A stretch of DNA of 64,000 bases from a virus. Its lineage: Duplodnaviria; Heunggongvirae; Uroviricota; Caudoviricetes. A program made the translations under genes and the position numbers. This document shows, in pieces, positions 14,866-57,287 of the stretch. The notes below the pieces were generated by a model. The model had not been told where the DNA came from, searched no databases, and saw only the letters and a program-made list of their open reading frames with translations. Position 1 is the stretch's first letter, and the number at the start of each line of letters is the position of its first letter. The stretch lies in IMG/VR virus record IMGVR_UViG_3300018065_000012; one strand, given 5' to 3'.

Positions 14866-14875
14866 GTTGTATAAT
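14866..14875 (+). promoter_or_regulatory. Promoter-like motif GTTGTATAAT (-10 element with adjacent TG), copy 1
   Basis: Sequence caacaGTTGTATAATatg in the 76-nt gap between the tail module and the SNF2 helicase gene. A 16-nt perfect palindrome aagaaaaatttttctt lies at 14844-14859, and TTGACA at 14836-14841 is 28 nt upstream, which is non-canonical spacing. Confidence 0.4.
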
Positions 14876-14908
14876 ATGAAAATGAACCGCAGCGGATGAG
14901 GTCAGTTC

Positions 14909-16702
14909 ATGAGCATGCTTTTGGCGCGAGATGGGATGCTGTGCGTCCTTGATTGCTATCATGAAAAAGACAAAGTAAAGAAAATCGGAGCAATTTGGCA
15001 TCGGGACTCCAAGCTTTGGGTCATGCCTTTGACGCTTTCCAACGTCGAAGCAGCACTGGACGTGCTTGACGATCCAGCAATTGAATCAACTCTTGAAGAA
15101 GCTCTTACGGCGCAACAAAAAAAAGAAGACCGCCTTTATCAGATTGCAAGGCTTTCTAAAACCGACGAGCCTGTTCGGTTACGAATTCCCGGTTTGAAAA
15201 TCCCTTTGTATAATTATCAAAAACTTGGCGTCATGTTTGCCATGACTAATGGTGATGGCGTTTTGATTGCTGACGAAATGGGGCTTGGAAAAACTCCTAC
15301 TTCTATTGCTGCAACACTTTTCAGGAAAAATCGCAACAATTGTAAACGTTGTCTGATAGTAGTTCCTGCTGCTGTGAAATGGAACTGGCCCATTGAGATT
15401 GAGAAATTTTCTGAGGAACCTTACGTTGTAATTGACGGGTTGCCCGATAGTCGCGTGAAACAATGGCTCGGAAAATTGATTTGTTTGCGGCAAAGTAGCG
15501 GCAATTACAAGTATCGTTCTGGCGAGCCATTTTTCTATGTTGTTAATTACGAATTGCTGACGCAGGATTTATTTGGCGGAAAGAACATCGAAGTCAAAGC
15601 AGACGATAGCGTAGCAACGGCGCAACGGAAAATAAAGCAAATCAATAAAGCGAAAGAGAGAGAAGGGAAGCTTTCCTCTGCTCGCGAACGGGTTTGGGGT
15701 TGTATGATTGTTGATGAAATTCACTATGCGAAAAATCATAACAGCAAGAGAACAAGAAACCTCAAAAAAATGAAGTCCGTTTTTCGTTTGGGGTTGACTG
15801 GTACGCCTTTGGATGGGAAGCTTGAAGAACTACACAGCGTCATGCAATTCATAAAACCCGGTTTGTTCACGGGCAAAACGAGATTTCTTCAAAGGCACGC
15901 CGATTTTGATTTTTGGGGACGCGTGACGCGGTATAAAAGGATAGATGAGGTCCGGGAAAAAATAAAGCCGTTTTTTATTCGCCGTTTGAAAAAAGATGTA
16001 ATGAAAGACCTCCCCGACAAGACTTATCAAAACCGCTATATTGAGTTCAATCCTCAAGAAAGAAAAATCTATGAATCCATTGCTGATCGCAAACATCCCG
16101 TAACGGAAGATTCTGAAGCGATGGTAAAGGTTATCCGTTGTAAGCAGTTTTGCGATCATCCTTCCTTGGTTGGTGAAATCTGCAAATCTTCAAAGATGGA
16201 CATGTTTATTGAAATCGTCTCTGAATTGATTCGCTACAATGGCGAAAAGGTAATCATATTTTCGCAATACAAGAAGATGCTTGACATTATCGACGAAGAG
16301 TTGAAAAAACAAAAGTTCACGTTTCTCCGTATCGACGGGGATACGAAACCGAAAATTCGAGCAAGTTATCAAGCGGAATTCAACAACAATCCAAAGATCG
16401 ACGCAATTATCGGTACTGAGGCAATGAGTACGGGTTTGAATTTGCAGGGCGCAACGTATGTTATCAACTATGATGATAATTGGGCACCAGCGATTATGCG
16501 TCAACGTGAAGACCGCGCCCATCGGGATGGACAAAAGAATGCAGTGACTGTGATTAACTTTATCTGTCGCGATACAATTGAAGAACGCATTCGTGACGTT
16601 CTGTTTAGTAAAGAATCCGTGTCTTCCGAGACATTGGGCGATGAAACAGATGAGATGGTATTGAAACGACTCGGCCCGCAAGACATGGCCAAGCTGGTCT
16701 AA
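14909..16702 (+). CDS. SNF2/Rad54-family helicase
   Basis: The SF2 helicase motifs are present: ADEMGLGKT (I), DEIHYAKN (II, DExH), LTGTPLDGKLEE (III) and QREDRAHRDGQ (VI). Confidence 0.85.
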   Translation: MSMLLARDGMLCVLDCYHEKDKVKKIGAIWHRDSKLWVMPLTLSNVEAALDVLDDPAIESTLEEALTAQQKKEDRLYQIARLSKTDEPVRLRIPGLKIPLYNYQKLGVMFAMTNGDGVLIADEMGLGKTPTSIAATLFRKNRNNCKRCLIVVPAAVKWNWPIEIEKFSEEPYVVIDGLPDSRVKQWLGKLICLRQSSGNYKYRSGEPFFYVVNYELLTQDLFGGKNIEVKADDSVATAQRKIKQINKAKEREGKLSSARERVWGCMIVDEIHYAKNHNSKRTRNLKKMKSVFRLGLTGTPLDGKLEELHSVMQFIKPGLFTGKTRFLQRHADFDFWGRVTRYKRIDEVREKIKPFFIRRLKKDVMKDLPDKTYQNRYIEFNPQERKIYESIADRKHPVTEDSEAMVKVIRCKQFCDHPSLVGEICKSSKMDMFIEIVSELIRYNGEKVIIFSQYKKMLDIIDEELKKQKFTFLRIDGDTKPKIRASYQAEFNNNPKIDAIIGTEAMSTGLNLQGATYVINYDDNWAPAIMRQREDRAHRDGQKNAVTVINFICRDTIEERIRDVLFSKESVSSETLGDETDEMVLKRLGPQDMAKLV

Positions 16703-16738
16703 ATCCCATCCCTATTTAACTCCTTCCTTGAGGTAATC

Positions 16739-18460
16739 ATGTCTTTTGAAACCATGTCTATTGAGCGTCATCTTCTGAAATTGTTGCTTACGGATATTAT
16801 GGTCACGCGGCCTTTTATCCTGAATGTAAAAGAGATTTGGTTTTTCGGTTACAGGAAAATCATCTTCAAAATGGCCTTGGAAATGTTCCGAGGCTCTGGA
16901 ACAATTCTTACGCAAGACTTGTTCGAAGCTGAAATTGATAAACTTTATCCCGGTACGACCAAAAAAGAAATGCGGGAAAAGCTTGTTACTGAATGGACGC
17001 TGATCAAACAATGCGACGTACAAGAAGAAGTCAAAGCATTGATTGAAAAGCTTGAAGAAAAGGAATGCATCGGTAGCGTCAGTTTGATTTGCGAAGAAAC
17101 ACTTGGAAGGATTCAAAAAGGCGACATCAAAGGTGCCGTCCATCTTTTGAAAAAAGAGTCGATTCAACTAAATATTGAAAGTCAAACGGACCAACCTATG
17201 GTTCAAGTGACTGAAGTTAAGGATATTGATCAACGGATTCATGATCAAAAAGCAAACCCCGCTAAATATGGCGGAATCAAAACTGGTTTTCAAACGTTTG
17301 ATAAACTCACGGGTGGTTTATTTCCTGCGGAAATGACTTTGATCGCAGCGTTATCAGGCGTCGGTAAGTCAACGATTTTGAAACAGATTGGGTACAATAT
17401 TGTCATTGGAAATCAGACAGCGAAAAACCCGTATGATCGGTATCCCGGTAAAAACGTCTTACACATAACAAACGAAGAGCACCGTGATCAGGTCCGTTTG
17501 AAGTATCATGCATTGTTTTCCAATATTGACTATTTCCGTTTCAAAAATGCAACCATTGACCCCGCTGGATTGAAGCAATGGAAAGCGATCATGAAAGAAT
17601 TGGAACGTGATTGCTACGGACGGTTGTTTATTAAAGATATTGGACAACATTCAACCGTTGCGGAAATTCATAGGGCTTACGCAGAGTTGGAGCAGATTGG
17701 TTTCAAAATTCACGTGATTATTCTTGACTACATGGATCACATGTCGCCAATGCAAAAAGCGTTTAGTGAAAATGATGAACAAGCAAAAGTGGCAAAAGAT
17801 TGCAAGGGGATGTGCGTTGAATTCAATCTTCCTTTGGTTACAGCTACTCAAGCTGCAACAAGTGTTGCTAAAAAAGAAGAAAAAGGGCACCGATTCGGGC
17901 GGCAAGACGTGTATGGTTCAAAGCGTCGAGTTCACGCAAGTAACACGTTTATTGGAATCATGCAAAAGCGTTTTGATGACACGCAGATTGCGAACAAAGA
18001 TGGAAGCGGTGGCGATAGAGAGGATATTGACGCTTGTGATAGGCTTTTGCTTGCGGAAGTTTGTAAGAACCGAGACAACAGGAATTTTGTCTTCAAAATT
18101 CGGCATTGCGTAAAAACAGGTCGCGTAGTACAAGAGGATTGGAAAGGCGACGATGATACTGGGAAAACTGGGCCTATCAGTGCCGACAAAGTTAAGCAAG
18201 AACTTGAGAAAGCGTACGAAGAAGGCAGTTTGAAAATAACGGATGAAGAAAAATCCGTCAAAAAACCCGATGAAGAAAAGCAATCGGAAGAAGTTCAAAA
18301 ACGGCCCAAAACGGTTGATCAACCACCACCTGAAGAGAAACCTTCAGAAAAGCCTGAAGAGTTAAACAAAACACCCTCAAACGGGAGCGAGACGACATCA
18401 AAAGGTCTCTTTAACCTTGTTAAATCCATCCGTGACAAACGTAAGAAAAAAGAAGAATGA
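16739..18460 (+). CDS. DnaB-like replicative helicase (RecA-fold ATPase) with K/E-rich C-terminal tail
   Basis: Walker A AALSGVGKST and Walker B-like IILDYMDH. The N-terminal region resembles the DnaB N-domain. The gene sits between the SNF2 helicase and the initiator or primase genes. Confidence 0.7.
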   Translation: MSFETMSIERHLLKLLLTDIMVTRPFILNVKEIWFFGYRKIIFKMALEMFRGSGTILTQDLFEAEIDKLYPGTTKKEMREKLVTEWTLIKQCDVQEEVKALIEKLEEKECIGSVSLICEETLGRIQKGDIKGAVHLLKKESIQLNIESQTDQPMVQVTEVKDIDQRIHDQKANPAKYGGIKTGFQTFDKLTGGLFPAEMTLIAALSGVGKSTILKQIGYNIVIGNQTAKNPYDRYPGKNVLHITNEEHRDQVRLKYHALFSNIDYFRFKNATIDPAGLKQWKAIMKELERDCYGRLFIKDIGQHSTVAEIHRAYAELEQIGFKIHVIILDYMDHMSPMQKAFSENDEQAKVAKDCKGMCVEFNLPLVTATQAATSVAKKEEKGHRFGRQDVYGSKRRVHASNTFIGIMQKRFDDTQIANKDGSGGDREDIDACDRLLLAEVCKNRDNRNFVFKIRHCVKTGRVVQEDWKGDDDTGKTGPISADKVKQELEKAYEEGSLKITDEEKSVKKPDEEKQSEEVQKRPKTVDQPPPEEKPSEKPEELNKTPSNGSETTSKGLFNLVKSIRDKRKKKEE

Positions 18461-19263: not shown

Positions 19264-19287
19264 GTTTTTGTAAAACCTTTCAAGCGA

Positions 19288-19297
19288 GTTGTACAAT
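19288..19297 (+). promoter_or_regulatory. Promoter-like motif variant GTTGTACAAT, copy 2
   Basis: Sequence caagcgaGTTGTACAATtataaaagg, followed by the GU-rich leader tcttgtgttttgtgtg and the SD aaggagg before the ATG at 19350. Confidence 0.35.
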
Positions 19298-19349
19298 TAT
19301 AAAAGGTCTTGTGTTTTGTGTGCCGCAATTTTTGCAAGGAGGGTTTGGG

Positions 19350-20372: not shown

Positions 20373-20470
20373 ATGCGTTGCGTGAAACGTGCGTATTTTT
20401 CTCAGAAAGTTCCAACAAAGTTCACGGCAAACGCTGCCGGTGCGGTTAAGGTTAATAAAGGTTCGGTGAT

Positions 20471-21538
20471 TTGGAAAGCATTCGCGACAAGCTTTCGTTT
20501 GGTGATATTTCTTGGCTCATGCCCAAGATAGACGTTCAGCTTGTTTTGGAGCGGCTCAACGTTCGGTTGCTTCCTAATCGCATGGGAAATCAAATCTACG
20601 GGTGGTGTCCTGATCATTATATCCACGTTAAAAGGAATCCGAGCCATCCGAAATGGACGATTAACGTCGAAACGGGCCAGACGATGTGTTTTACGGAGGG
20701 AAGAGGAAGTAATCTGGTTTGGATCGTTTCAAGGTTGAGAAAGTGCTCTCCCAAAGAAGCCGTCGATTGGATGCTGGGAGATAGCAAAGGGATTTCTAAC
20801 ATGGAAATTGCCAGCTTGAAAAAGCAATTCAAAAAGTTGCGGAGAAAGAAGGCGGCAAGCAAAGGGAAAGCTACCAACCAAGCGGTGGAGAGCGTCAAAC
20901 GGTGGTTGAGAACGGAGACGATGGTGCAAAGTGGATATGAGTATTTTATGCGACCTCCGGGGAAAAAGCCCACGTTGATCGAGAAAGAAACTGTTGACCG
21001 CTATCGTTGCGTGCAATTACGTTCTGGGTATTACGCCAACCGGGTTGTTATTCCGTTCTTCTCGAAGAAGACGCTAATCGGTTTTGAGGCCGTTGATGTT
21101 CTCGGAAAGAAAGAATGGCTTCGACGCCATCCGACGCTTGAAGAGAACCAATATAAGAAGGTTCTCTACTCAAAAGGGTTCAAACGTAGCGAGTATCTTT
21201 TTGGATTGGATGAAATTCAGAGTCAAGAAATAGTCGCCCTGACCGAAGGCGCACGTGAAGTCATGAAATTACGGCAATTGGGATATCCGGCGGTTGCAAT
21301 TTTAGGCGCAAGCGTCAGCCAGAAGCAAATTATGCTTTTGGCAGAAGCCAACCCCAAAAGCTTAATTTTGCTATTCGACGGTGATGATGCGGGTTACGAA
21401 ATTCAGCGCAAGGTTTTCAAGCAAATGAGTGAGTTTTTTGAAACGCATAAAGGGACGGTTCGGCGTGGTTACGACCCCAAAACGCTACCGCCCGAAGAGG
21501 TCAAAAAATTATTTGGAAAGTTTGGATTTTTCTCTTGA
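20471..21538 (+). CDS. dnaG: DnaG-type DNA primase (zinc-binding domain plus TOPRIM)
   Basis: Zn-ribbon CPDHY...HPKW...CFTEGRGSNL. TOPRIM residues in ALTEGAREVMKL...LLFDGDDAG. TTG start at 20471, with an alternative ATG at 20519. Confidence 0.75.
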   Translation: MESIRDKLSFGDISWLMPKIDVQLVLERLNVRLLPNRMGNQIYGWCPDHYIHVKRNPSHPKWTINVETGQTMCFTEGRGSNLVWIVSRLRKCSPKEAVDWMLGDSKGISNMEIASLKKQFKKLRRKKAASKGKATNQAVESVKRWLRTETMVQSGYEYFMRPPGKKPTLIEKETVDRYRCVQLRSGYYANRVVIPFFSKKTLIGFEAVDVLGKKEWLRRHPTLEENQYKKVLYSKGFKRSEYLFGLDEIQSQEIVALTEGAREVMKLRQLGYPAVAILGASVSQKQIMLLAEANPKSLILLFDGDDAGYEIQRKVFKQMSEFFETHKGTVRRGYDPKTLPPEEVKKLFGKFGFFS

Positions 21539-21562
21539 CTTCGAGAGAAAACACGCTATAAT
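21535..21562 (+). promoter_or_regulatory. Near-consensus sigma-70-type promoter (TTGACT, 16 nt spacer, TATAAT) upstream of the phage sigma factor gene
   Basis: TTGACT at 21535-21540 and TATAAT at 21557-21562. Followed by an ~80-nt GU-rich leader (gtgtgttctatgttttgtgttttgcgttgtgtgg). Confidence 0.55.
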
Positions 21563-21646
21563 TAAAGAGCTTAAAATTGTGTGTTCTATGTTTTGTGTTT
21601 TGCGTTGTGTGGCCGGTAATCGGTTCTTTTTACAAAGGGCGCTCCC

Positions 21647-22327
21647 ATGTCTGAAGTAATCACTTCTGAACGTAACTTCAAACAGGTTTTGAAAGAGGAC
21701 GAGATTTGTGATAGCCCATATACTCGTGAAGGGCTTGCCGTGCTCATTGCGGAAGGCGAAGCAAACGAGTTTGAGAAACAGCTTTTCCACGACTCCATTG
21801 TCCGCGCCATTTACACCATCGTTTTTCGCTACGGCGAATGCGATACGCGCGTGCCGGTGGAAGAGCTTGCGAACGACGCAGAATTGGCGTTGTGGAAGAA
21901 CCTGCCTTTCTTCAAAAAGGAAAAAGGCGTCAAGTTTATCACGTGGATGTGGCGTGTGGTTCGGAATCATGTGTTCAATCACCGCAAGCGGGTGACCCGT
22001 TATAGAACGAATCAGAAAATTACGACCAACATGTCTTCAGAGGAAAGCGAGTTTATCACGACTCGCGCTTGCGACGAAAGTCTTTCAAACGCAGACAAGT
22101 CGTGGCAGATGAAAAACGCCATGCAGTTGCTTTTTGATGCTTACCCGGAAAAGCAGAAAATGCTGCTCGCTCTTTTTGGCGATCCGTTTTCTGAAAACTT
22201 TTCAGGAAAGAAGCCGAACTTTGTCCGCGTGGCGAAAAAGTTGAAAACGAAAATGAACGATGTTCGGCGCTTTTGCAATCACGTTGCGTATCCGTTCTTG
22301 AAAAAGCACTTGGACGATCTGTTATAG
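21647..22327 (+). CDS. Phage-encoded RNA polymerase sigma factor (sigma-70 family, regions 2 and 4)
   Basis: KGVKFITWMWRVVRNHVFNHRKR matches sigma-70 region 2.3/2.4 (cf. YKFSTYATWWIRQAITR). The C-terminal region is HTH-like (region 4). Confidence 0.75.
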   Translation: MSEVITSERNFKQVLKEDEICDSPYTREGLAVLIAEGEANEFEKQLFHDSIVRAIYTIVFRYGECDTRVPVEELANDAELALWKNLPFFKKEKGVKFITWMWRVVRNHVFNHRKRVTRYRTNQKITTNMSSEESEFITTRACDESLSNADKSWQMKNAMQLLFDAYPEKQKMLLALFGDPFSENFSGKKPNFVRVAKKLKTKMNDVRRFCNHVAYPFLKKHLDDLL

Positions 22328-22386
22328 AGGGGCAAGCCGTGGCGAGTAAAAAATTTGGCAAGGAGATGAAGCATCTTGAGGACAAT

Positions 22387-22788
22387 ATGAAAATGGGTGC
22401 ATGCTATCGCCATTTTAGAAGCGATTCGGCAAACTGCAAAAACTGTCTCGCAAAATTGCTTTGCAGAAGCGCGACAGCGACGGCGGTTGGCGTTATGGAA
22501 GAGCAGAGTTTTGAAGAGATTTTGATTGAAGAATTGAAAGAGAAATTTCAATTCGCAAGGTCAAAACAAGGAGAAAGCTGCAACTGTTACTGGTTTGAGT
22601 TTGGCCCAATCCCCATTCAAATTTGGATCGCGAAGTCAGGTAATATGAAAATAAGGATTGGTTACGAAAACAACAACAAGGTTTATGAAACGAAGAAAGA
22701 CAGCGTTGAAGAAATAGATAGTTTCGTCAAACAATTGATGGATGATTCCAAAGAGTTTGGGACGGCTCATGCAAACAAGGGAATATGA
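22387..22788 (+). CDS. Hypothetical protein (133 aa). The start is ambiguous (22366, 22387 or 22393).
   Basis: The ORF overlaps the 3' end of the sigma gene in another frame. A Cys cluster CYRHFRSDSANCKNC is present. Confidence 0.35.
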   Translation: MKMGACYRHFRSDSANCKNCLAKLLCRSATATAVGVMEEQSFEEILIEELKEKFQFARSKQGESCNCYWFEFGPIPIQIWIAKSGNMKIRIGYENNNKVYETKKDSVEEIDSFVKQLMDDSKEFGTAHANKGI

Positions 22789-24264: not shown

Positions 24265-25252
24265 AATTGTTATTGTAGACATCTGGCGTGGCCGAGAGCG
24301 CGTTTCAACGGCAGAAATTTTGCAGATGGCAGGCCGGTGTGCCCGGCAACCAAACCAAATAGGTCATGTTGATATCATTATTAACGAAGATGACGTACAA
24401 ACGTTGAAAGATGAAATGCAGGACGCAGATCATCTTCGAGTTGATTCTGTTCTGTACGATGCAGAAACGCTTGCTTTTCATCTCGTTTCTGAAATTAGCA
24501 GCGGGGAGATAAGGACGCTTTCAGAGGCAAAAAGATGGTACGGAAAAAGTTTCGCGGCGTTTACGGGGTTTTCTTGTGAAGTGGAGCAAGCAGTTGACTT
24601 GCTTTCTGAAGAATGGGAGACAATAACGCGCCGGGGCGATTTTCTTTTTCCTACAGATTTGGCGCATATCGCGAGTCGTTTTTATTTTCATCCAGCAGAC
24701 ATTTACTATTGGCGGGAAAATTTTTTTGAGCTTTTTGAAAGTGAACTTCAAAAAAATGATCCAGCAATTGCTTGGGCGCTATCTAATGTCGCGAGAGAGC
24801 GAAAAAGGGGCAATCTGTACGGTTGTTGGGAGTTGATAGAAGAATACAAAGACCAAGTGTCTTCACTTGGCTTAGACTGTTCAAAAACGATTGCTGGTGG
24901 CTTGGTTTGGTGGAGTCTTTTAGGAGGGCCGTCAACAAGCAAACTGTCCAGTCAAAAGAAAGAAGCAAAAGAGGATTTCGGGCGCATTTATGGTGCGCTC
25001 TTAAAGATCAACGAATGCTCGGGATGGGACAAACGGAAGTTTTTTGAGGATTTGAGAGTACGGATAGCATACAAAATCCCTGATGAACTTGTAAACTTGT
25101 GTAAACTTGAAGGAATTGGAAAAAGTGTTGCGTTTGAGTTGTATAATTTAGGAGTGGAAAACGCGGAAGGAATTCGTGAAAACTGGGACGCAATTGAAAC
25201 GTTTGGAACTGACGAACTGATAGAAAAATTGAGACACTTGTCTTATGGCTAA
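24254..25252 (+). CDS. Ski2/Hel308-like helicase, C-terminal fragment (motif VI, winged helix/ratchet, HhH domain 5)
   Basis: It begins MADRIVIVD...ILQMAGRCAR (motif VI QMAGRAGR) and has a C-terminal HhH GIGKSVAFEL. It is in the same reading frame as the N-terminal fragment, and the ATG lies 8 nt inside the 3' end of the UDG ORF. Confidence 0.8.
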   Translation: MADRIVIVDIWRGRERVSTAEILQMAGRCARQPNQIGHVDIIINEDDVQTLKDEMQDADHLRVDSVLYDAETLAFHLVSEISSGEIRTLSEAKRWYGKSFAAFTGFSCEVEQAVDLLSEEWETITRRGDFLFPTDLAHIASRFYFHPADIYYWRENFFELFESELQKNDPAIAWALSNVARERKRGNLYGCWELIEEYKDQVSSLGLDCSKTIAGGLVWWSLLGGPSTSKLSSQKKEAKEDFGRIYGALLKINECSGWDKRKFFEDLRVRIAYKIPDELVNLCKLEGIGKSVAFELYNLGVENAEGIRENWDAIETFGTDELIEKLRHLSYG

Positions 25253-25715: not shown

Positions 25716-26392
25716 TTTCACGGCACGGTATTTCTTCGACACGAGAAGCAAGGTACAAGCGATTTCACTTGTGGCTCGTAGAAATGTCAACGCTGTATGG
25801 GGTTGTTGATGATCCAGAGTTGAGAGATGTTATACATATTTTGCTTGAAAAACTTGAGAACAGAATAAGCGCAAATAAAGAACAAGAAGAAGGAAAGCGC
25901 AAGAAAAAAGTACGCAGTTTCTTTGCAATCTTCAAACAAAAATATCTTCAATTAACAGATTTGGAATATTTTGGAGGATTCAAAGCAACAGAAGCAAAAA
26001 TCATTGAAGGTTTGATAGGAAAACTGGAGCAAAATGGCGCAACGATGGAAGAGTATCTCAAGTGGTTGTTTGACGAGTTTTATATCAACAAAGAACAACT
26101 GTCTCCAAACATTCCTTTGTCCGTAAGTAATAGTGTCTTGCAAGAGTTCATGTATAAAAACGCGGCAAAGCTCAAAAATAGGAAACAGGCAAAAGAAGCC
26201 ATAGAAGAGGAAGAATTGCTTTTGAGAAGGGCAGGCGTTCTCATACGGTCAAGCAAGGACGAAGGCTTTAAGCAAGAAGTGGTTACGCTATTGAAGCATT
26301 ATCAAAAATCCGAATGCAATTTGCCAGAGTTTCGGTTAGAGCTTAAAAAATTATCAGAAAAGTTTGAAAAACTTAAAAGCCAAAGTGTATAA
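25712..26392 (+). CDS. Hypothetical protein (226 aa)
   Basis: ATGA overlap with the upstream gene. Charged, helical composition. Confidence 0.4.
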   Translation: MISRHGISSTREARYKRFHLWLVEMSTLYGVVDDPELRDVIHILLEKLENRISANKEQEEGKRKKKVRSFFAIFKQKYLQLTDLEYFGGFKATEAKIIEGLIGKLEQNGATMEEYLKWLFDEFYINKEQLSPNIPLSVSNSVLQEFMYKNAAKLKNRKQAKEAIEEEELLLRRAGVLIRSSKDEGFKQEVVTLLKHYQKSECNLPEFRLELKKLSEKFEKLKSQSV

Positions 26393-26448
26393 TTGAAAAG
26401 CATGAGTTTTGTTGTTGGTCGTTTGTACTTTGTAATAAGGGTTGAGCG

Positions 26449-27060: not shown

Positions 27061-27104
27061 TTTGTCGTGTGTAGTTTGTTTATTCATTTTGAAAGGAGAT
27101 TGTC

Positions 27105-28219: not shown

Positions 28220-28254
28220 GGGAAGGCTCAGTTTCTGAGCCTTCCCTTTTATTT
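28220..28254 (+). terminator. Rho-independent terminator
   Basis: Perfect 12-bp stem gggaaggctcag/ctgagccttccc with a ttt loop, followed by ttttattt. Confidence 0.7.
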
Positions 28255-30866: not shown

Positions 30867-30962
30867 CTTAATACAATAATTTTTTTATATTTGCCTTTTT
30901 ATAGAGACATTCTGTAAAAGGGTTTTTTTATGTATTCGACGAACGCTAAAGGAGATTGAGAA

Positions 30963-32247: not shown

Positions 32248-33663
32248 ATGGAAAAGAATCTTTGGGAACGTAAAGGTATCATCGGCGGTCATGAAATCAA
32301 GCCTGATGACAATATTGATTCTGCCAATAAGGAGAATATGAAAATGGCAAAGGACAAGAAAGACTTAAAGCTTGATCCGAATTTTGGAGACGAATCGCAG
32401 GAGCAAAATATGCCAAAGAGCGAAGAAAAACCAACGGAGGAAATTGTAGAAGCGCCAGCAGCAGGACTGTTTGTTCCAAATATTCCAATGCCTGTAACGG
32501 CAGAGGAAAGCAAGGAAATAATTAAGGACCAGTGCGAAGTAGCGTTCAAGATTGCTTTTGTTGGTGCAGGTCAAGCTGGCGCGAGGATGGTTGAAGCGTT
32601 CTACAAACTTGGTTATCGCCGCGTTTGTGCTGTAAACACAACCAGTCAAGACCTTGTTGCAATTGATATCCCAGATGAAAACAAGTTTGTTATGGACATT
32701 GGGGAAGGCGGCGCAGGCAAGGAACCAGAGAAGGGCGAACAGGCAGTCAAAAAGCATTATGAGAACGTTTATGATCTGATGCGTCGGAGTTTTGGAAAAG
32801 ACTTCGAACGGATTATTGTTTGTATCGGCGCTGGGGGAGGAACGGGTAGTGGATCAATTGAAACATTGATCGATATTGCTCACGACATTGCAGAGTCTTT
32901 CAAACTGGAAGGCGGACCGGAACAGGTACCGGCTGTTGGCGCGTTGGTTTCAATGCCGATGTCCAATGAGAGTCAGAAAGTAAACGCTAACGCTTCAAAA
33001 GTTCTTGAGGTTCTTTTTGGACGTGTTGGAAAAGACAAAGGTGGAAGATTGTCTCAAAGGACGATGTCGCCATTGATAGTTGTCGACAATGACAGAATCA
33101 GCAAACTATATCCGGGGTTGCCAGTTACGCAGTTTTGGAGCGTCGCAAATCAAAGCATCAGTGGGCTATTCCACTTGTTTAACAACATTGCGGCTGCGAA
33201 AGGCGAAAATACAATTGCGACGTTTGACCGTGCAGATTTCGCAGATGTCCTCAAGAGTGGCGTAATTACATTTGGAGCAACACCATTGATCAAATGGCAG
33301 AACGAAACGGATATCAGTTTTGCAATCAGAGAGAATTTGAAGCATAACATTCTTGTTGCTGATATTGATTTAGGCTCTGCGGCTGTTGCAGCAGGCGTTG
33401 TAATTGGCAAGGACAAAATTTTGAATTCTGTCCCGCAAGATTATTTGAACCATGGATTTGAAATGCTTGGACGGATCATGAAAACAAATAGCGTTGTCCA
33501 TCGTGGAATCTATAAGTTGGGAGAAGCGATGGATAACGTAAAAGAACAGCCGGATTTAGTCGTTTACACAGCATTTGGAGAACTCGGAAAGCCAGACGCA
33601 AGAATGGAAGAAATTCAACGTCTTGGCGCAGTCGATCAACAAAACAGAATGCGTTTGAGATGA
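32248..33663 (+). CDS. Tubulin/FtsZ-family GTPase (PhuZ/TubZ-like)
   Basis: Glycine-rich loop FVGAGQAGARM and the tubulin signature IGAGGGTGSGS (GGGTGSG). An alternative start with a strong SD is at 32344 (aaggagaatATGaaaATG). Confidence 0.75.
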   Translation: MEKNLWERKGIIGGHEIKPDDNIDSANKENMKMAKDKKDLKLDPNFGDESQEQNMPKSEEKPTEEIVEAPAAGLFVPNIPMPVTAEESKEIIKDQCEVAFKIAFVGAGQAGARMVEAFYKLGYRRVCAVNTTSQDLVAIDIPDENKFVMDIGEGGAGKEPEKGEQAVKKHYENVYDLMRRSFGKDFERIIVCIGAGGGTGSGSIETLIDIAHDIAESFKLEGGPEQVPAVGALVSMPMSNESQKVNANASKVLEVLFGRVGKDKGGRLSQRTMSPLIVVDNDRISKLYPGLPVTQFWSVANQSISGLFHLFNNIAAAKGENTIATFDRADFADVLKSGVITFGATPLIKWQNETDISFAIRENLKHNILVADIDLGSAAVAAGVVIGKDKILNSVPQDYLNHGFEMLGRIMKTNSVVHRGIYKLGEAMDNVKEQPDLVVYTAFGELGKPDARMEEIQRLGAVDQQNRMRLR

Positions 33664-35694: not shown

Positions 35695-36060
35695 ATGAAA
35701 GAATTTTCCGTAGAACAAATCATAGAGATTATGCGTCGTTCGCTTGCGTCTGACGAATTTGCGTATCATATTGCGCCCTCATGGTTTGTTAGTGATACAT
35801 TCTATTTGACAAAAATCGACCCGCGTTTTCCCGGTATCCACATCGCTTCAAAATCAGGATTTTCACGTACCCCAAATGCTCCAATTATTGTCGAGAGGCG
35901 ATTCAGCCGTTTCACTTCGAAGTACATCGTGTTAGACGGTCAAAATAGGGTGGAATACGCCAGAAAGCACGCCGTTTCGAGCATCCCAGCCTACGTTGGG
36001 AACAAAGCCCTTGATGTCATTGAAGAAGCGACTGAATGGGCTAAAAATCAGAAAAAGTGA
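35695..36060 (+). CDS. Small ParB/Srx-fold-like protein (121 aa)
   Basis: YIVLDGQNRVEYARKHAVSSIPAYVG resembles the ParB N-domain DGxxRxxA...IP motif. Confidence 0.35.
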   Translation: MKEFSVEQIIEIMRRSLASDEFAYHIAPSWFVSDTFYLTKIDPRFPGIHIASKSGFSRTPNAPIIVERRFSRFTSKYIVLDGQNRVEYARKHAVSSIPAYVGNKALDVIEEATEWAKNQKK

Positions 36061-36077
36061 AAATTTTCTCGCCGTCG

Positions 36078-36087
36078 GTTGTATAAT
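36078..36087 (+). promoter_or_regulatory. Promoter-like motif GTTGTATAAT, copy 3. The -10 ends 6 nt before the ATG of the Mre11-like gene, implying a leaderless or very short leader transcript.
   Basis: Sequence cgtcgGTTGTATAATatagcATG. Confidence 0.4.
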
Positions 36088-36092
36088 ATAGC

Positions 36093-37013
36093 ATGACCAA
36101 AATTATTGTCTACGCGGATTTCCACGTCACTGGAAAACGCCCCATCCACCGCATTGATAAATTTTCTAACAACCTGATAGCAAAGTTACTTGAGGTTTAT
36201 CAGATTGCGGATGACGCCGCAGTCGACTGCGCGCTTTTTCTGGGCGATTTTTTCAATAATCATCGCATTTTTAGTTACGAAATCCTCAATGACGTGATGG
36301 ATATTATTTGTGATGCGAGGGTGACGACTTACGCAATCATTGGGCAACACGATTTAGTTGGATACAACGAGGGCAGTTATGCTTCGTCAACGTTGAATTT
36401 TATGGAGAGACATTGCTGTCAACTTAAAACGATCCGCACTCCGACAGATGTTGGCGATGCGATTTTGTACCCTTGCCATTGCTATGATAATTTTTTGCAA
36501 GCATTCGAACGGCCTGTATCGAGAAAAAAGAAGGCAATTCTTGCCGCGCATCATCTTATCACGGATTCGAGCAAGCCTTTCAAAACGTACTTAATTCAGG
36601 ATTTTCTGCCCTGCAACTACAGCGCTGTTGTGTTTGGTGATTATCATTTAGGAATGAAACCCAGCGGTGACGACAAGACGTTAGTTTGGTCTCCCGGCGC
36701 ATTGGCGCGACTTGCGATCAACGAAAAAGGCCGTAAGGTTAAGGTAGGAATATTGACAGCAGTTCCGGGCAAGCCGGTTGAAGTTGAAGAAATCGAGTTG
36801 AAGTCTGCGCTGTCGGGAGAGGAAGTTTTCGGAACATCAATCTTAGAAGGCGTGCGAGAACAACCGGAGATGGTAGACGCATCAGGATTCGTCCAACGGA
36901 TTCGCGAACTCGAAGCCGAATCTACTGACGTCTTTGATATGATTGAAAAGGCAGCAAAGCAAAAGGGCATCCGGAAGGAAGTTATTGACTATATTTTGAA
37001 AAAAAGAGCATAA
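36093..37013 (+). CDS. Mre11/SbcD-like calcineurin-fold nuclease
   Basis: Phosphoesterase motifs YADFH (I), LGDFFNNH (II), IGQHD (III), AAHH (IV), VFGDYH (V). Confidence 0.75.
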   Translation: MTKIIVYADFHVTGKRPIHRIDKFSNNLIAKLLEVYQIADDAAVDCALFLGDFFNNHRIFSYEILNDVMDIICDARVTTYAIIGQHDLVGYNEGSYASSTLNFMERHCCQLKTIRTPTDVGDAILYPCHCYDNFLQAFERPVSRKKKAILAAHHLITDSSKPFKTYLIQDFLPCNYSAVVFGDYHLGMKPSGDDKTLVWSPGALARLAINEKGRKVKVGILTAVPGKPVEVEEIELKSALSGEEVFGTSILEGVREQPEMVDASGFVQRIRELEAESTDVFDMIEKAAKQKGIRKEVIDYILKKRA

Positions 37014-37026
37014 ATGCTTTCAGCGG

Positions 37027-37036
37027 GTTGTATAGT
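37027..37036 (+). promoter_or_regulatory. Promoter-like motif variant GTTGTATAGT, copy 4
   Basis: Sequence tttCAGCGgGTTGTATAGTtaaaag. It shares the CAGCG prefix with copy 8. Confidence 0.35.
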
Positions 37037-37074
37037 TAAAAGTTATCAAACGTCTTTCGTTCAGGAGGTACAAA

Positions 37075-38310: not shown

Positions 38311-39276
38311 ATGATCCGTGGTTACGATGAGCGCACCGGACACACTTTTACATTCCGTGATAAAAAACCTGTTTATGAAGGGCGGCAAAAAAACCTTGAA
38401 GACAAACAGCCATGTCCTTGGTTTGAAGCAGAAATGCTTGCAACGCGGATGACGTGTACTTTTCCTTGTGAACCACTGTACGTTTTCCTTTCGGATGAGT
38501 GTTACAAAGTTTTTCATTGGTCTGGAAAATACGTTTACGAAAAGGCCACCCCACCAAAAAACTTGGAGTATGTTGCTTTTGTTAAAAAGCCAAAGCCTGA
38601 CGTTTTGGATCGCTATCCAAACGCAAAAGCTTATGCGTTGAACATCGGCGACGCTCATGATGCTCTTGGTTTTTTGTTCTACAAGGTTTTGCGCAAGCAT
38701 CCCACAACTGTTCCAAAACATTATTGGTTTCTCAAACCATTTGAACATCGAAATCCGTATGGTTTCGGATATGAACGTTTGTTGCAAGGAGATGCAGCCG
38801 GGAAAATTGCTCACTGTTGCGCTACCGGAACGCCAGCATTGAACCGGAGATATTCTGTTGTCAGGGACAATGGATTTGATGGGAATTTTTTACTTCCTGA
38901 ATATGCAGGGAAAGACACGATTTGTTTGGTTGAAGCGCAGAACGTTGAAACACTTTTACCACGGCTGTCTATTTCTTGGCGATATGCGGCTATGTGTAGC
39001 CCAATGAGAATTGATAATGAAGAACCTTTTGAGAAGGCAACAGGAATTGATTCAAAACGCATAACGCTTCGGGTCGTCAGCGCCAACGATAGCGAAGATA
39101 TAACGGCATTTATGCAGTTTTGGAACATAATCACAGGTGGGAAATTGGTTGCTTTTTCTCATAAACAATACCTTCCTAAATTGTATAATAGGATGGCGCT
39201 GTTTCACTATTTTGATTATTGCGTAATTGAGGGAAAAAATGCAATTGGCAATGTTATACGAGAAGCATGGTGTTGA
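38311..39276 (+). CDS. Hypothetical protein (321 aa)
   Basis: Protein-like composition. Its 3' end contains promoter copy 5 for dnaE. Confidence 0.45.
   Translation: MIRGYDERTGHTFTFRDKKPVYEGRQKNLEDKQPCPWFEAEMLATRMTCTFPCEPLYVFLSDECYKVFHWSGKYVYEKATPPKNLEYVAFVKKPKPDVLDRYPNAKAYALNIGDAHDALGFLFYKVLRKHPTTVPKHYWFLKPFEHRNPYGFGYERLLQGDAAGKIAHCCATGTPALNRRYSVVRDNGFDGNFLLPEYAGKDTICLVEAQNVETLLPRLSISWRYAAMCSPMRIDNEEPFEKATGIDSKRITLRVVSANDSEDITAFMQFWNIITGGKLVAFSHKQYLPKLYNRMALFHYFDYCVIEGKNAIGNVIREAWC
39180..39189 (+). promoter_or_regulatory. Promoter-like motif ATTGTATAAT, copy 5 (inside the 3' end of the upstream CDS, upstream of dnaE)
   Basis: Sequence cctaaATTGTATAATagg, 50 nt upstream of the dnaE ATG. 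SD gaggga at 39229-39234. Confidence 0.35.
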
Positions 39277-45101: not shown

Positions 45102-45166
45102 CACCCTACTCAAACCGCAATAAAACTACCCTTTTTTCACTTTTCCAAGCAAAAAAACCTTCCCCG

Positions 45167-45176
45167 GTTGTATAAT
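45167..45176 (+). promoter_or_regulatory. Promoter-like motif GTTGTATAAT, copy 6 (upstream of gyrB)
   Basis: Sequence ccccgGTTGTATAATatattg. The gyrB ATG at 45213 has the SD ggagag. Confidence 0.4.
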
Positions 45177-45212
45177 ATATTGTGAAACAAGGCTGATTTG
45201 ACGGAGAGAAAA

Positions 45213-49543: not shown

Positions 49544-49551
49544 GGTGAAGA

Positions 49552-52058: not shown

Positions 52059-52061
52059 TTC

Positions 52062-53015: not shown

Positions 53016-53048
53016 AAATGAAGATTTTTACCAAATGAATTTTTGTGC

Positions 53049-53058
53049 TTTGTATAAT
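53049..53058 (+). promoter_or_regulatory. Promoter-like motif TTTGTATAAT, copy 7
   Basis: Sequence gcTTTGTATAATtagaagtgtgtgATGggttg. Followed by a GU-rich leader and a GTG/ATG at 53068-53073. The stronger SD (ggggg) is before the ATG at 53122. Confidence 0.4.
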
Positions 53059-53121
53059 TAGAAGTGTGTGATGGGTTGTAAACGCTTTTGTCTTCAGCTG
53101 TTAGGTTTTGTGGGGGTTTTT

Positions 53122-54618
53122 ATGAAAACTGAAACGAGAGAAAAAACAAAAAGTTTTCGGGAAAAACTTGAGAAATATTCTGCCTTAGCAAAACTACATG
53201 ATTCAGCTTATGAGTCATGCGGCTTAACCCCAAAGCAACTTGAAAAATTGCTTTTGGGCCATCATTTCTCAAACGGCGCAACTAAAGTAAAGCTATCCAA
53301 ACTCGGCGTCTTCAATTCAACTTTTTTCGATGATATTGATTTTGACGAAAATACAAAACAACTGTTGGCTGCTGTAGGGGAAATAGGCGGCAAGATGGCA
53401 AGAGGAAAGGCGCATCCCAATGCGCCTTTGAAATTTTCAGGGGTAAGGGATCTTTTGAATACTATTTTGAGGGACAAAAAATTACTAATGAAGATAGGGG
53501 TTGCAAGAGTTGGGAAAAGCAAATCCGATGAAGTTTGGACAGGACGGAATCGTTGTATGGCGTTATTTATCTTATTTGGTCCAGACGTTATCGTTCCGAG
53601 TGACGTTAGCAAGGAAGCCGTTTCGCAATCTGAATTTGATAATATGGTTTTGAAGGCAAACAAAGGAAGAAGGGTTTCAAAAGCGGAAAGTTCAACCGTT
53701 TTTGTGAACGAACTCGATGAAAGAATGAAAGGCTCTTCAGACATAGAACGGAATTTTGAATTGCTTTCATCTTCAAGAGGCAAAAAATGTTTTTTCCGTG
53801 CGCGTGGTGGCGTGGATGGAGAAGAGATCGGCTTCGAACGAAACGCTTGGAAACACTTACAAATCTGGGATGATTTTACTGGGGAACGCCCAAGACAAAT
53901 TGATAAGAGAAAGACAAACATTAGCATCAGTTTTTTTGAGGATTTTTTCCATTGTTTATCTGGCTCTTGTCATGATCGGTCTTGGACAAAAAACATAAAA
54001 AGCAACGAGAGGAAGAAGGAAAAGATTGATCTTTTTAAGGAACGTGCTTATCGTTGTGAAGCATTTGCGGAAAATTTTGCGGAAATTCTGAATTCTTTGT
54101 TTGAGAATTTTAAGACAAAACTTCAAGGTGAGCTTAAAGGGAAGTATACAGAAGAGGAATTCAGAAACGTGATGGCTGGAATGACTATCGGAAAAATGGG
54201 GAGAAATTGGGGGAAGTTTTTGGGCAGTTCAGGAAGAGCAATAGCATTTTTTCTTTTGGGGCTTCGCCTTACGTCAAATTGTAGCGAGGCGCTTGAAGAA
54301 AAATTCGGTTGGGAACTTTTTTCGGAACATCATAACGTCCTTGTTGAAGCTGCGGAAACATTAGCGCGTTCCTATTTTGATATGTGTTTTGAAGACCAAT
54401 TGGTGAAGGACAAGAAAAACAGATCAAAGCTTATGAGCCGGTTGTTTTATGAGGTGCTGTCAATTAAAGGTTCTGGAGCAAAAGATAAGAAGAAAAGATT
54501 AAGGCATTTGTATGAAGATGTTTTGGTGGACGATCCAGAGTTAAACGGGTGGCTTGGCGAAGCTATTAAAGAAGAAAACAGGGGAATAGCGTTGAGAAAA
54601 TTCGTGACAGAATTATAG
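53122..54618 (+). CDS. ParB-like nuclease-domain protein (paralog B). An alternative GTG start is at 53068.
   Basis: EVWTGRNRCMALFILFGPDVIVPSD parallels ECWSGRHRLAFLALLYGPDAEIPVE in the 37075 gene. Confidence 0.4.
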   Translation: MKTETREKTKSFREKLEKYSALAKLHDSAYESCGLTPKQLEKLLLGHHFSNGATKVKLSKLGVFNSTFFDDIDFDENTKQLLAAVGEIGGKMARGKAHPNAPLKFSGVRDLLNTILRDKKLLMKIGVARVGKSKSDEVWTGRNRCMALFILFGPDVIVPSDVSKEAVSQSEFDNMVLKANKGRRVSKAESSTVFVNELDERMKGSSDIERNFELLSSSRGKKCFFRARGGVDGEEIGFERNAWKHLQIWDDFTGERPRQIDKRKTNISISFFEDFFHCLSGSCHDRSWTKNIKSNERKKEKIDLFKERAYRCEAFAENFAEILNSLFENFKTKLQGELKGKYTEEEFRNVMAGMTIGKMGRNWGKFLGSSGRAIAFFLLGLRLTSNCSEALEEKFGWELFSEHHNVLVEAAETLARSYFDMCFEDQLVKDKKNRSKLMSRLFYEVLSIKGSGAKDKKKRLRHLYEDVLVDDPELNGWLGEAIKEENRGIALRKFVTEL

Positions 54619-54627
54619 GAGAGAAAA

Positions 54628-55452: not shown

Positions 55453-55468
55453 ATCGGAGGAATTAGAA

Positions 55469-55903
55469 ATGGGCACAAGAAGCTTCATTGGAATCGTGGA
55501 AGGCAAAAAGGTACGCGCAATTTACACGCATTGGGACGGTTATCCAACTCACAACGGGAAGATTCTGCTCGAAGCTTTCAACACGCCAGAAAAGATTCAT
55601 GAACTGCTTGATCTTGGTGATCTGTCTTGTTTGGGAAGTGAACTCGGAGAGAAGCACGGCTTCAACGATCACAATGATAACAAGAAAGCAAAGAATTGGT
55701 GTTTAGCTTACGGACGTGATCGTGGCGAGGAAGAAACTGATTCCAAGTTGTTCAGCTCAGAAGACGAATTTTTGAGCAAGTGTGATGAAGATTACACGTA
55801 CTTGTTCAAGGATGGAAAATGGTTTTTCAGGAATTGGCAAAAATCATTGAAGCCGTTGACCAAAGCAGCAATCAAAAAAGACAACGAGGATGATGAAGAA
55901 TGA
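55469..55903 (+). CDS. Hypothetical acidic protein (144 aa)
   Basis: ATG at 55469 with the SD ggagg 8 nt upstream. Confidence 0.4.
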   Translation: MGTRSFIGIVEGKKVRAIYTHWDGYPTHNGKILLEAFNTPEKIHELLDLGDLSCLGSELGEKHGFNDHNDNKKAKNWCLAYGRDRGEEETDSKLFSSEDEFLSKCDEDYTYLFKDGKWFFRNWQKSLKPLTKAAIKKDNEDDEE

Positions 55904-56232
55904 GCTTGATTCTTTCCAAGACACAGCCAGAAGGGACAGAAGCAAAATCGCTTGGAAAAATGTTTCCTGATTTTCCTGATTTGAAAATCAGCGTTCCTAT
56001 CCGAAAGAAAGACGTTGAATCTGCTACGCATCAAAATGGGAAAAAGAACGAATGGATTTCAGTTGAAATGCCCTTTGAAGACTTTTGCGAACTGACCAAA
56101 TACATTATGACGAATACGGAATTGACAAAAGATGACCCGCGCATGCGGTTGGTTTCTTGGTTTCACCAGCTTCAAACTGTCGAAGGTTTCAACGGGAAAG
56201 GGACTTGGCGGTTGGAGACGAAGGATGCCTGA
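55900..56232 (+). CDS. Hypothetical protein (110 aa)
   Basis: ATGA overlap. Confidence 0.35.
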   Translation: MSLILSKTQPEGTEAKSLGKMFPDFPDLKISVPIRKKDVESATHQNGKKNEWISVEMPFEDFCELTKYIMTNTELTKDDPRMRLVSWFHQLQTVEGFNGKGTWRLETKDA

Positions 56233-56494
56233 ATATATTTGTCCAATTTGCAAGCGCGATCTTGCTCCTGCTTGGAGTTTGATAGGGTTGTCCCCAAAAG
56301 AAGGCGCGGCGATGCACATGGACGCGCATATCAAGGAGAGTAGTGGCGAGTTGATCGAGGCTTTGCGGGAACATAAAGACAAACTGCCGGGAGAAGTAAA
56401 AAAGAGATTTGACAACTACACGTCTATACTTGAAAGCGCTGGAACGTTTGAAATGTCAGCGGGTGTTGAGCATGGGAATTACGATCCACTTTGA
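56225..56494 (+). CDS. Small zinc-ribbon protein (89 aa)
   Basis: MPEYICPICKRDL. Confidence 0.3.
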   Translation: MPEYICPICKRDLAPAWSLIGLSPKEGAAMHMDAHIKESSGELIEALREHKDKLPGEVKKRFDNYTSILESAGTFEMSAGVEHGNYDPL

Positions 56495-57176
56495 TCTTGA
56501 ATACAGAAGCACAAAACAAAAAGCCATTGAGTGCTTGAAGTACATTGGCAAGATTGCAGAAGGGATGGGTTTTCAAGTTGCCAAAAAGCCGTGGTACGTG
56601 AGCTATGCAACTGATCTGAAAACTATTGATGATTCAGACATTCCAGAAGATATGCGTGAAGCATATGCTTGGGCTAAGATTCAATATCAACAAAGAGCAC
56701 CTGTGATGTTTTCTTCCAGCGATACGCCAAGCCAAAGAGTCAGGAAAGAACACAAAATTGAAAAATGGGAAGCTGGGGCGAAGAATTTCGAAGGTTACGT
56801 TCTTCACACGTGGTGGGGCGAAGGTTGTGAGCCGACGAATATTGGCCTCGTCCATCGTGGAAGAAATGGAAAAGTTTGGCGCGGAAGTTCATTTACAAAA
56901 ACGCAGTGGGCTGTAGATTTTGTCAAGGCGCACGTTGCCGTTTGCGCTCTTTTGAAATTTATTCAACAGACAGGTTTACTCAAAAGCGTTTATGATGAGG
57001 GTCATTATTGGGAAGACGAAGATTTCACAAAACTGTTGGACAATTTTGAACTCAACAACAAAGGGATTGCAGCAATTTGTACGATGCTACAAAAAGCCGC
57101 AAAGGACACAGATGCTACCATTGAAGGACATGGTTTGAAATCTGTAAAGACATTGAAAGAGTTCCCGCGTATATAG
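56472..57176 (+). CDS. Hypothetical protein (234 aa)
   Basis: ATG at 56472 (MGITIHFDLEYRS...). Confidence 0.35.
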   Translation: MGITIHFDLEYRSTKQKAIECLKYIGKIAEGMGFQVAKKPWYVSYATDLKTIDDSDIPEDMREAYAWAKIQYQQRAPVMFSSSDTPSQRVRKEHKIEKWEAGAKNFEGYVLHTWWGEGCEPTNIGLVHRGRNGKVWRGSSFTKTQWAVDFVKAHVAVCALLKFIQQTGLLKSVYDEGHYWEDEDFTKLLDNFELNNKGIAAICTMLQKAAKDTDATIEGHGLKSVKTLKEFPRI

Positions 57177-57253
57177 CATATCTCAAATCATCTCAATAAG
57201 TTAGATCAATCGCGCAAGCACACCAGCGGCAAGAAAATTCATAAAGTTCAACA

Positions 57254-57274
57254 GAAATCTGAAAAACAGATTTC
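57254..57274 (+). promoter_or_regulatory. Perfect 8-bp inverted repeat gaaatctg-aaaaa-cagatttc directly upstream of promoter copy 8; candidate operator
   Basis: Seen directly in the 130-nt intergenic region. No U-tract follows, so an operator reading is more likely than a terminator. Confidence 0.4.
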
Positions 57275-57277
57275 AGC

Positions 57278-57287
57278 GTTGTATAAT
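57278..57287 (+). promoter_or_regulatory. Promoter-like motif GTTGTATAAT, copy 8 (upstream of the Rad50-like gene)
   Basis: Sequence tttCAGCGTTGTATAATtatagAAGGAGGatagttgATG. Strong SD, with the ATG at 57307. Confidence 0.45.

Follow-up and report, generated by a model that had tools for sequence, protein, structure and literature searches.

Putative −35-less promoters ahead of the replication and recombination genes of an uncultured ~338-kb phage

In the stretch of DNA that is analysed here (64,000 nt from IMG/VR virus record IMGVR_UViG_3300018065_000012, class Caudoviricetes; hereafter the window), a short word, TTGTATAAT, recurs on one strand ahead of genes for replication and recombination, and the question arises of whether its copies are promoters and, if so, which sigma factor reads them. 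A previous inspection of the letters alone (the sequence-only reading) had listed eight near-identical 10-mers and taken them for a phage-specific middle-gene promoter class, either of the extended −10 type for the host RNA polymerase or the target of a sigma factor that the phage encodes. As discussed below, it is well supported by the sequence comparisons that (G)TTGTATAAT marks a genuine set of at least ten promoters for phage replication and recombination genes, and, on balance, the host's primary sigma factor appears a likelier reader of them than the sigma factor of the phage.

Occurrence of the motif and anatomy of the sites

All eight 10-mers were found where they had been placed, on the + strand. 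In the window, whose long genes are all on the + strand with few intergenic gaps, the exact word TTGTATAAT occurs nine times, in 9/9 cases on the + strand, as compared with 0.41 copies on average and 3 at most in dinucleotide-preserving shuffles. With up to one mismatch to GTTGTATAAT allowed, 15 copies are present where 3.3 are expected, with 13 of the 15 on the + strand. The zone within 120 nt upstream of the + strand gene starts makes up 12.4% of the window, and 7 of the 9 exact copies end inside it (binomial p ~1e-5), as do 9 of the 13 one-mismatch copies on the + strand (binomial p ~3e-6). Because of the excess over the shuffles, the strand bias and the placement at gene starts, the motif is considered to be real and non-random; a motif search, which the sequence-only reading had proposed as a check, gave over the window a + strand excess with clustering at gene starts and not an equal frequency on the two strands.

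It is noted that two members had been overlooked, one at 25138-25147 (GTTGTATAAT, in coding sequence inside orf24254) and the other at 26384-26393 (AGTGTATAAT). The genes that had been assigned to the sites were recovered (SNF2, HD, SbcD/Mre11-like, GyrB and AAA_23/Rad50-like, together with Sigma70_r2 for the sigma factor), and the copy at 39180, like that at 25138, sits in coding sequence and not in intergenic DNA. Two further exact copies of the 9-mer, at 10415 and 15206, are probably chance matches or cryptic sites and not members of the set.

The anatomy of the promoters was derived from nine sites aligned on the hexamer, with the hexamer itself and the purine downstream of it counted in all ten sites. 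The −10 hexamer is TATAAT in eight sites, TACAAT in one and TATAGT in one, always 0-97 nt from the start codon, and all ten sites have what defines a −10 element of the sigma-70 family, namely a hexamer near TATAAT with A−11 and T−7, on the coding strand and upstream of a gene. Just upstream of the hexamer, T−15, T−14 and G−13 are invariant or nearly so, with G−16 in 6/9 sites; the base immediately 3' of the hexamer is A or T in every aligned site, and the sixth nucleotide after the hexamer is a purine in 10/10 sites. Further upstream there is a recurrent G/C-rich stretch at −20 to −16 and then an A-tract, with A in 9/9 sites at −31, in 8/9 at −32 and in 6/9 each at −30 and −29. The A-tract is often preceded by (T)TG (TTGAAAAAC, TTGTAAAAC, TTGGAAAAA, GTGAAAAT, CTGAAAAAC), with the register of the word being loose, its start ranging from −36 to −31.

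That there is no consistent −35 element, as had been claimed, agrees with our counts: the best match to TTGACA at 16-18 nt averages 2.78/6 over 45 sites of the family versus 2.50/6 at random positions. The site at 26388 (TTGAAA-18) is the sole window site reaching a 5/6 match to the −35 consensus, the other sites not having the make-up of the canonical −35/−10 class. A generic sigma-70 scan of the window gave no enrichment, with 33 sites versus 30 in shuffles. The description as extended −10 promoters does not hold in the strict sense, since the TG abuts the hexamer at −14/−13, without the intervening base of TGnTATAAT; a consensus scan at 39189 also returned no TG before the second hexamer. 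The bases at −15 to −13 are specific to each genome, with TTG in the window, GG in two related contigs (L007 and L009) and A at −13 in a third (L005).

Several other elements were considered and set aside. The alternative register TGT + ATAATN would lose A−11 and T−7. A CAGCG shared upstream by several sites had been noted before; it is exact at 37021 and 57274 and absent at 19283, which reads AGCGA within CAAGCGAG, and at ~14862, which reads CAACAG. Because the exact copies are just two and their distances to the TTG are unequal (two extra G versus none), 'cAGCGnG' is not a fixed-register element and was dropped as a part of the motif. An ECF-like (extracytoplasmic-function) −35 word, TGAAAAAC, varies in its register. 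The placement of TATAAT in a hairpin loop whose 5' arm is complementary to the Shine-Dalgarno (SD) sequence is seen in some relatives (L012 at 8816, L017 at 8769) and weakly at dnaE of the window, and it is not general. A literature search for the string TTGTATAAT returned unrelated matches only.

Conservation in distant relatives

The relatives are syntenic contigs (L numbers) that were reached via homologues of the ParB-like protein, with 31-54% identity in that protein and a GC content of 40-63% at the locus. TATAAT, or rarely TATAGT or TATACT, stands upstream of the orthologues of the OB/HD, orf26449, Mre11-like and dnaE genes in these relatives. At the position of the OB/HD promoter, gTATAAT or TATAGT is found in five of them (L021, L022, L023, L025, L026), TATAAT precedes the orf26449 orthologue by 56-95 nt in eight (L005, L007, L009, L015, L016, L017, L018, L020), cGGTATAAT lies upstream of gyrB in L007, and the TTGTATAAT of the 25138 site is kept identical at the same position in L022, L023 and L012. 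In the five contigs with more than 50% GC (L007, L009, L015, L017, L020), taken together with L025, TATAAT favours the coding strand by 30:4. The deviations of the hexamer (TACAAT, TATAGT, TATACT) fall at −10, −9 or −8, with none at −11 or −7.

The dnaE promoter is particularly informative. Its hexamer forms the Tyr-Asn codons of a conserved Y-N motif in the gene upstream of dnaE, the motif reading R-Y-N-[R/K] in 8/10 genomes, and the Y-N pair is written TAT AAT in 10/10 genomes, even in one where TAT and AAT make up 22% and 24% of their codon families. Under the codon usage of each genome, the joint probability of TAT AAT in all ten is ~10^-5.6. Because the proteins that carry the promoter are just ~25-38% identical, shared ancestry cannot explain the identical synonymous choices. 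In the window phage, Leu (TTG) occupies the position that holds Arg in 8/9 relatives, and it is because of this replacement that the dnaE promoter of the window has its TTG extension.

A second line of evidence comes from the Mre11-like gene. In five genomes (the window, L005, L009, L015, L023), just 5-8 nt separate the hexamer from the ATG and no SD sequence is present, while in four (L012, L017, L020, L007) it lies 15-34 nt from the ATG and a GGAGG-like SD sequence is present. Such a covariation would be expected of promoters at which transcription starts about 6 nt downstream of the hexamer. The mRNA of the Mre11/SbcD-like gene of the window is predicted to be leaderless, because the purine at the predicted start is the A of the ATG. 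The promoter call of the sequence-only reading is thus borne out by position, strand, conservation in relatives and the covariation of leader and SD sequence.

The sigma factor that reads the promoters

The candidate readers are the host's primary sigma factor and the sigma factor encoded in the window. The protein of the latter matches TIGR02937 with E = 1.5e-8 and is a divergent ECF-like factor, and in its structure model a disordered linker stands between a sigma2 domain and a C-terminal sigma4-like domain of four helices (residues 148-222); in a structure search with this model, all the neighbours were sigma factors, with weak scores, and a scan with a two-sequence alignment of the sigma factor gave no matches. 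Through the family the gene keeps its slot between the primase gene and a small Cys-rich open reading frame (ORF), and its orthologues are 14-39% identical as compared with ~31-77% for the neighbouring genes. The canonical promoter that had been noticed before this gene, TTGACT-16-TATAAT, was confirmed, with CGC where the class has TTG. No other gene of the window has a strong canonical −35/−10 promoter, and in L021, L023, L025 and L026 the sigma gene likewise follows good −35 boxes (TTGACN/TTGAAA).

Two features beside the sigma factor are noted here. Directly after its gene, at 22339-22788 (the ORF being listed as 22273-22788), lies the gene of the small Cys-rich protein, with a CxxC-type motif near the N-terminus and orthologues at the same place in L021, L022, L023, L025, L026 and L027; an anti-sigma factor or a co-factor are possible roles for it. 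There is also a second conserved promoter-like motif, AATTYTTTnATATT, right after stop codons at 30878-30891 and 59854-59867 of the window and at 5189-5202 and 15367-15380 of L005, with orthologous sites in L007, L009, L012, L015, L017, L018, L020, L022 and L023; most relatives retain it behind the AAA_28 gene. A hairpin follows it in the window (30894-30921, with a T-run), L005 and L007, the hairpin sequence differing between the genomes. This motif is a candidate target of the phage sigma factor.

We propose that the host RNA polymerase with its primary sigma factor reads the sites as −35-independent promoters of the sigma-70 family via the −10 element, a proposal whose chances we hold to be about evenly balanced. 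The parts of such a promoter would be the near-perfect TATAAT, the TTG next to it (−15 to −13), in most sites preceded by G−16, the G/C-rich segment of the spacer, the A-tract at −32 to −29, often after (T)TG, and the purine 6 nt past the hexamer as the likely start. The TTG extension and the A-tract would substitute for the missing −35 element, and the operons under these promoters would be those of replication, recombination and partition-like functions in a phage of ~338 kb, while the phage sigma factor, itself made from a −35/−10 promoter, would serve another class of genes, probably late ones.

It is consistent with this proposal that TATAAT, the universal consensus of primary sigma factors, does not change through the family although the phage sigma factors diverge, which leans to the host sigma factor, and that the rare deviations of the hexamer spare −11 and −7; in phiEco32-like phages, sigma factors that are ~15% identical recognise unrelated consensus sequences (PMC8948821). 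Moreover, the best −35 boxes go with the weakest TTG, namely CGC at the sigma promoter (TTGACT-16) and GTG at 26388 (TTGAAA-18), and this trade-off suggests modular compensation within one holoenzyme. For an ECF-type sigma factor that carries a sigma4 domain, a −35 element in a fixed register should be a requirement, and none is present. In addition, G-rich bases are frequent just downstream of the hexamer in the relatives; such bases fit a contact with sigma region 1.2, a region that ECF-like sigma factors lack.

On the other side, the TGn one base further upstream, which −35-less promoters of primary sigma factors usually need, is absent, this norm having been established in well-studied bacteria and perhaps not being that of the host. 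The gene of the phage sigma factor, with its distinct canonical promoter, lies in the middle of the same gene module, as in a sigma cascade, and the genome-specific −15 to −13 bases may have co-evolved with a factor of the phage. These points weigh against the reading by the host sigma factor.

The comparison with known promoter classes is as follows. The early phage promoters of primary sigma factors (sigma-70/sigma-A) have in common with the present sites the TATAAT, A/T-rich upstream DNA, an AT-rich discriminator, the orientation with the genes and the position at operon heads; they differ in that the present sites have no TTGACA-type −35 at 16-18 nt and have a conserved TTG abutting the hexamer. 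The extended −10 promoters (TGnTATAAT, or the −16 TRTG of Gram-positive bacteria) likewise have −35-less function, a TG just upstream of the −10 and an apparent trade-off between promoter strength and −35 quality, whereas the TG is here one base closer (−14/−13, with no 'n') and relatives have GG or A instead. The middle/late promoters of phiEco32 gp36 are similar in the divergent phage sigma factor, the single AT-rich element with TGTATA, the missing −35 and a start that lies 6-8 bp downstream (PMC8948821). By contrast, gp36 is without region 4 while the sigma factor here has a sigma4-like domain, and the present motif holds the full host hexamer, with only TGTATA in common with tAATGTAtA. 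The middle promoters of T4 (MotA box with AsiA) also combine a host-type −10 with a different element near −30 in place of the −35 and have replication genes downstream, but the element near −30 is here an A-tract and not (a/t)(a/t)(a/t)TGCTTtA, with no TGCTT. As to T4 late (gp55) promoters, no TATAAATA is present at −10, where TATAAT is followed by A or T; as to ECF promoters, with AAC at −35 and CGT(C/A) at −10 in fixed spacing, the −10 is here TATAAT and the GAAAAAC-like words are missing in four sites. The middle/late promoters of Thermus phage P23-45 are −35-less, of the extended −10 type and read by the host RNA polymerase. The dependence of a class on the −10-proximal element alone, with reading by the host holoenzyme, is the same as proposed for the present phage, while those promoters carry the canonical TG extension and no counterpart of their regulators gp39 and gp76 was identified here. 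As judged from the sequence, the present promoters would work most like −35-independent phage promoters, with the abutting TTG being unusual and its role putative.

An alternative to the host sigma factor is that the ECF-like sigma factor of the phage reads (G)TTGTATAAT as a single-element promoter, or as a −10 with the A-tract, after the host holoenzyme has first transcribed the sigma gene. The promoters would then be a middle class for replication genes, resembling those of SPO1 gp28 or phiEco32 gp36, which we consider somewhat unlikely. It would be in line with the facts that the sole strong canonical promoter in the window is that of the sigma gene and lacks the TTG, that −35 boxes recur before this gene in four relatives (the TTGACN/TTGAAA boxes of L021, L023, L025 and L026) and that the gene keeps its slot across the family, as well as with the lack of a −35 in the class, with the abutting TTG, which is no known element of primary sigma factors, and with the variation of both the −15 to −13 bases and the sigma factors among genomes. 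A precedent is given by phiEco32 gp36, which reads the single AT-rich element tAATGTAtA, having TGTATA in common with the motif, with starts 6-8 bp downstream (PMC8948821, PMC12276001). However, the TATAAT is invariant although the sigma factors are only 14-39% identical, a phage sigma factor reading the host consensus −10 would gain little specificity, a sigma4-like domain is present with no fixed-register −35 (the first base of the GAAAAAC-like words varies between −36 and −31), and AATTYTTTnATATT is available as an alternative target. To our knowledge, ECF-type sigma factors do not read TATAAT. Of the wider possibility, that a sigma factor of ECF architecture reads a TATAAT-type −10 with an abutting TG in a middle-gene cascade conserved throughout a deep, uncultured family of giant phages that encode tubulin, the promoters lying in conserved codons of the upstream genes, we would say from the sequences at hand that it is unlikely.

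Quite unlikely, in our estimate, is that the host sigma factor acts together with an accessory protein of the phage that binds the A-tract or a dyad at −30 or blocks sigma region 4, making a true middle class. Precedents are the MotA-type sigma appropriation of T4 and the blocking of sigma region 4 by T4 AsiA or by gp39/gp76 of Thermus phage P23-45. Such a protein could explain the A conserved at −32 to −29, at a fixed distance in 9/9 sites, and the conserved contrast between the −35-bearing promoter of the sigma gene and the −35-less class, but the edges of the A-tract shift by 2-3 nt among sites, and no MotA-, AsiA-, gp39- or gp79-like gene turned up, no dedicated search having been made. 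The A/T palindromes near −30 in four of the ten sites (AAGAAAAATTTTTCTT, GAAAATTTTC, GAAATCTG-N5-CAGATTTC and AGCAT-AA-ATGCT) would also fit a bound protein; they differ in sequence, and an A-tract followed by a T-tract suffices to explain them, so that a dyad operator was rejected. Highly improbable is that the copies are not promoters at all but a strand-biased coding word, a Chi-like recombination signal or chance matches. It is true that copies overlap codons (L-Y-N at 25139 and 39181), that two exact copies lie deep in genes, and that all copies are on one strand, as with Chi, in a phage that encodes RecA and SbcCD-like proteins. Nevertheless, the copies cluster within 120 nt upstream of gene starts, as given above, a placement with which a Chi-like signal clashes; the motif is the sigma-70 −10 consensus, the codons of the embedded copies depart strongly from the usage of the genome, the presence of an SD sequence covaries with the distance from hexamer to ATG, and a purine stands at a fixed distance downstream.

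Gene starts, neighbouring features and meaning for the phage family

The features are collected in Table 1.

Table 1. Positions of the proposed promoters, of the two non-member copies and of the sigma gene in the window
Feature	Position	Strand	Details
SNF2 helicase promoter	14846..14881	+	GTTG 14866-14869, TATAAT 14870-14875, A-tract ~14849-14853; start predicted at A 14881; 28-nt leader before ATG 14909
OB/HD gene promoter	19268..19303	+	GTTG + TACAAT 19292-19297; TTGTAA at 18-nt spacing; probable start ATG 19350 behind AAGGAGGG; leader GU-rich
Added member before orf25245 (HEAT-like)	25118..25153	+	GTTGTATAAT 25138-25147 inside orf24254, encodes L-Y-N; 97 nt before orf25245; TTGGAAAAA upstream
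Added member before orf26449	26364..26399	+	TTGAAA 26364-26369, 18-nt spacer, GTG + TATAAT 26388-26393; overlaps stop codon of orf25712
Mre11/SbcD-like promoter	36058..36093	+	GTTG + TATAAT 36082-36087, 5 nt, ATG 36093; no SD
ParB-like paralogue A promoter	37007..37042	+	GTTG + TATAGT 37031-37036; 33-nt leader with AGGAGG
dnaE promoter	39160..39195	+	ATTG + TATAAT 39184-39189, codes L-Y-N, in 3' end of orf38311
gyrB promoter	45147..45182	+	AAAAAAACCTTCCCCGGTTG + TATAAT 45171-45176; probable start ATG 45213 behind GGAGAG
ParB-like paralogue B promoter	53029..53064	+	TTTG + TATAAT 53053-53058; 59-nt GU-rich leader; likely start ATG 53123
Rad50/SbcC-like promoter	57258..57293	+	CTGAAA, 17-nt spacer, GTTG + TATAAT 57282-57287; 14-nt leader with AAGGAGG
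Exact GTTGTATAAT, probably not a member	10414..10423	+	deep in orf9824; no A-tract at −32 to −29; next gene start ~280 nt off
TTTGTATAAT, probably not a member	15205..15214	+	inside SNF2 gene; upstream features of the other sites absent
Sigma gene promoter	21535..21562	+	TTGACT-16-TATAAT; CGC where class has TTG
Phage sigma gene	21647..22327	+	ECF-like: sigma2 domain, linker, sigma4-like domain

Some of the starts given by the ORF caller, at 39227 (dnaE), 45198 (gyrB), 19311 (OB/HD) and 53068 (ParB-like B), are probably too far upstream, and better starts preceded by SD sequences are found 12-55 nt downstream, at 39239, 45213, 19350 and 53123, respectively; for dnaE, 39227 is a TTG and 39239 an ATG. 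GU-repeat leaders (GTGTGT, TTTTGT) are seen at 19303-19349, 21563-21646, 26399-26448, 27061-27104 and 53064-53122 of the window and also in L005, and AGGCAA repeats occur in the orthologous leaders of orf26449 and orf27105 in more distant relatives (L009, L014-L020). A translational regulator may bind these leaders, at sites that differ by clade.

The tightly packed block at 29-14832, headed by the ORFs 635-7075 (2146 aa) and 7086-9602 (838 aa), neither of which has a Pfam match, contains no promoter of this class. A terminator-like strong hairpin at 28220-28254 (GGGAAGGCTCAG-TTT-CTGAGCCTTCCC with a T-run) stands directly before the ribosome-binding site of recA (start 28268), with no TATAAT between the hairpin and recA; most relatives have a hairpin there, with a different sequence. 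In L005, the closest relative, dnaE is split at 12416-17305 into a 981-aa part and a 321-aa HHH_6 part, and the ORF between the parts has a faint NUMOD3 match and may be a homing endonuclease.

Regarding the phage itself, the region had no near-identical match among deposited phages, a tblastn search with DnaE against deposited phages reached only ~31% identity at best, and single-protein scans of viral and genome collections returned nothing useful. Metagenome contigs that carry the sigma protein of the window phage reach 338 kb in length. A Gemmatimonadota host was not accepted, the only match in the genome collections being a 2.2-kb contig binned in a metagenome-assembled genome, which is not trusted as host evidence. 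The window encodes SNF2 and DnaB helicases, a primase, the sigma factor, a DEAD helicase, RecA, a tubulin-like protein, SbcD/Mre11- and SbcC/Rad50-like proteins, DnaE, GyrB/GyrA and an NAD-dependent ligase; it has no RNA polymerase gene, and Rfam and tRNA scans of it gave nothing. The tubulin/TubZ-like gene (32248-33663) is 50-70% identical in L005, L007, L009, L014, L020 and the duplicates L006/L008/L011 and was undetected in several other relatives.

Taken as promoters, the sites would provide a transcription map of the replication and recombination module for an uncultured phage of ~338 kb and its relatives, with operon heads, one predicted leaderless gene and corrected gene starts, and the set would be useful for annotating this phage family. 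If it is true that the phage sigma factor reads the motif, the known range of specificity of ECF-like sigma factors would be extended. Finally, we note that the dnaE promoter points to promoter hexamers being able to stay fixed inside protein-coding sequence over very deep divergence.

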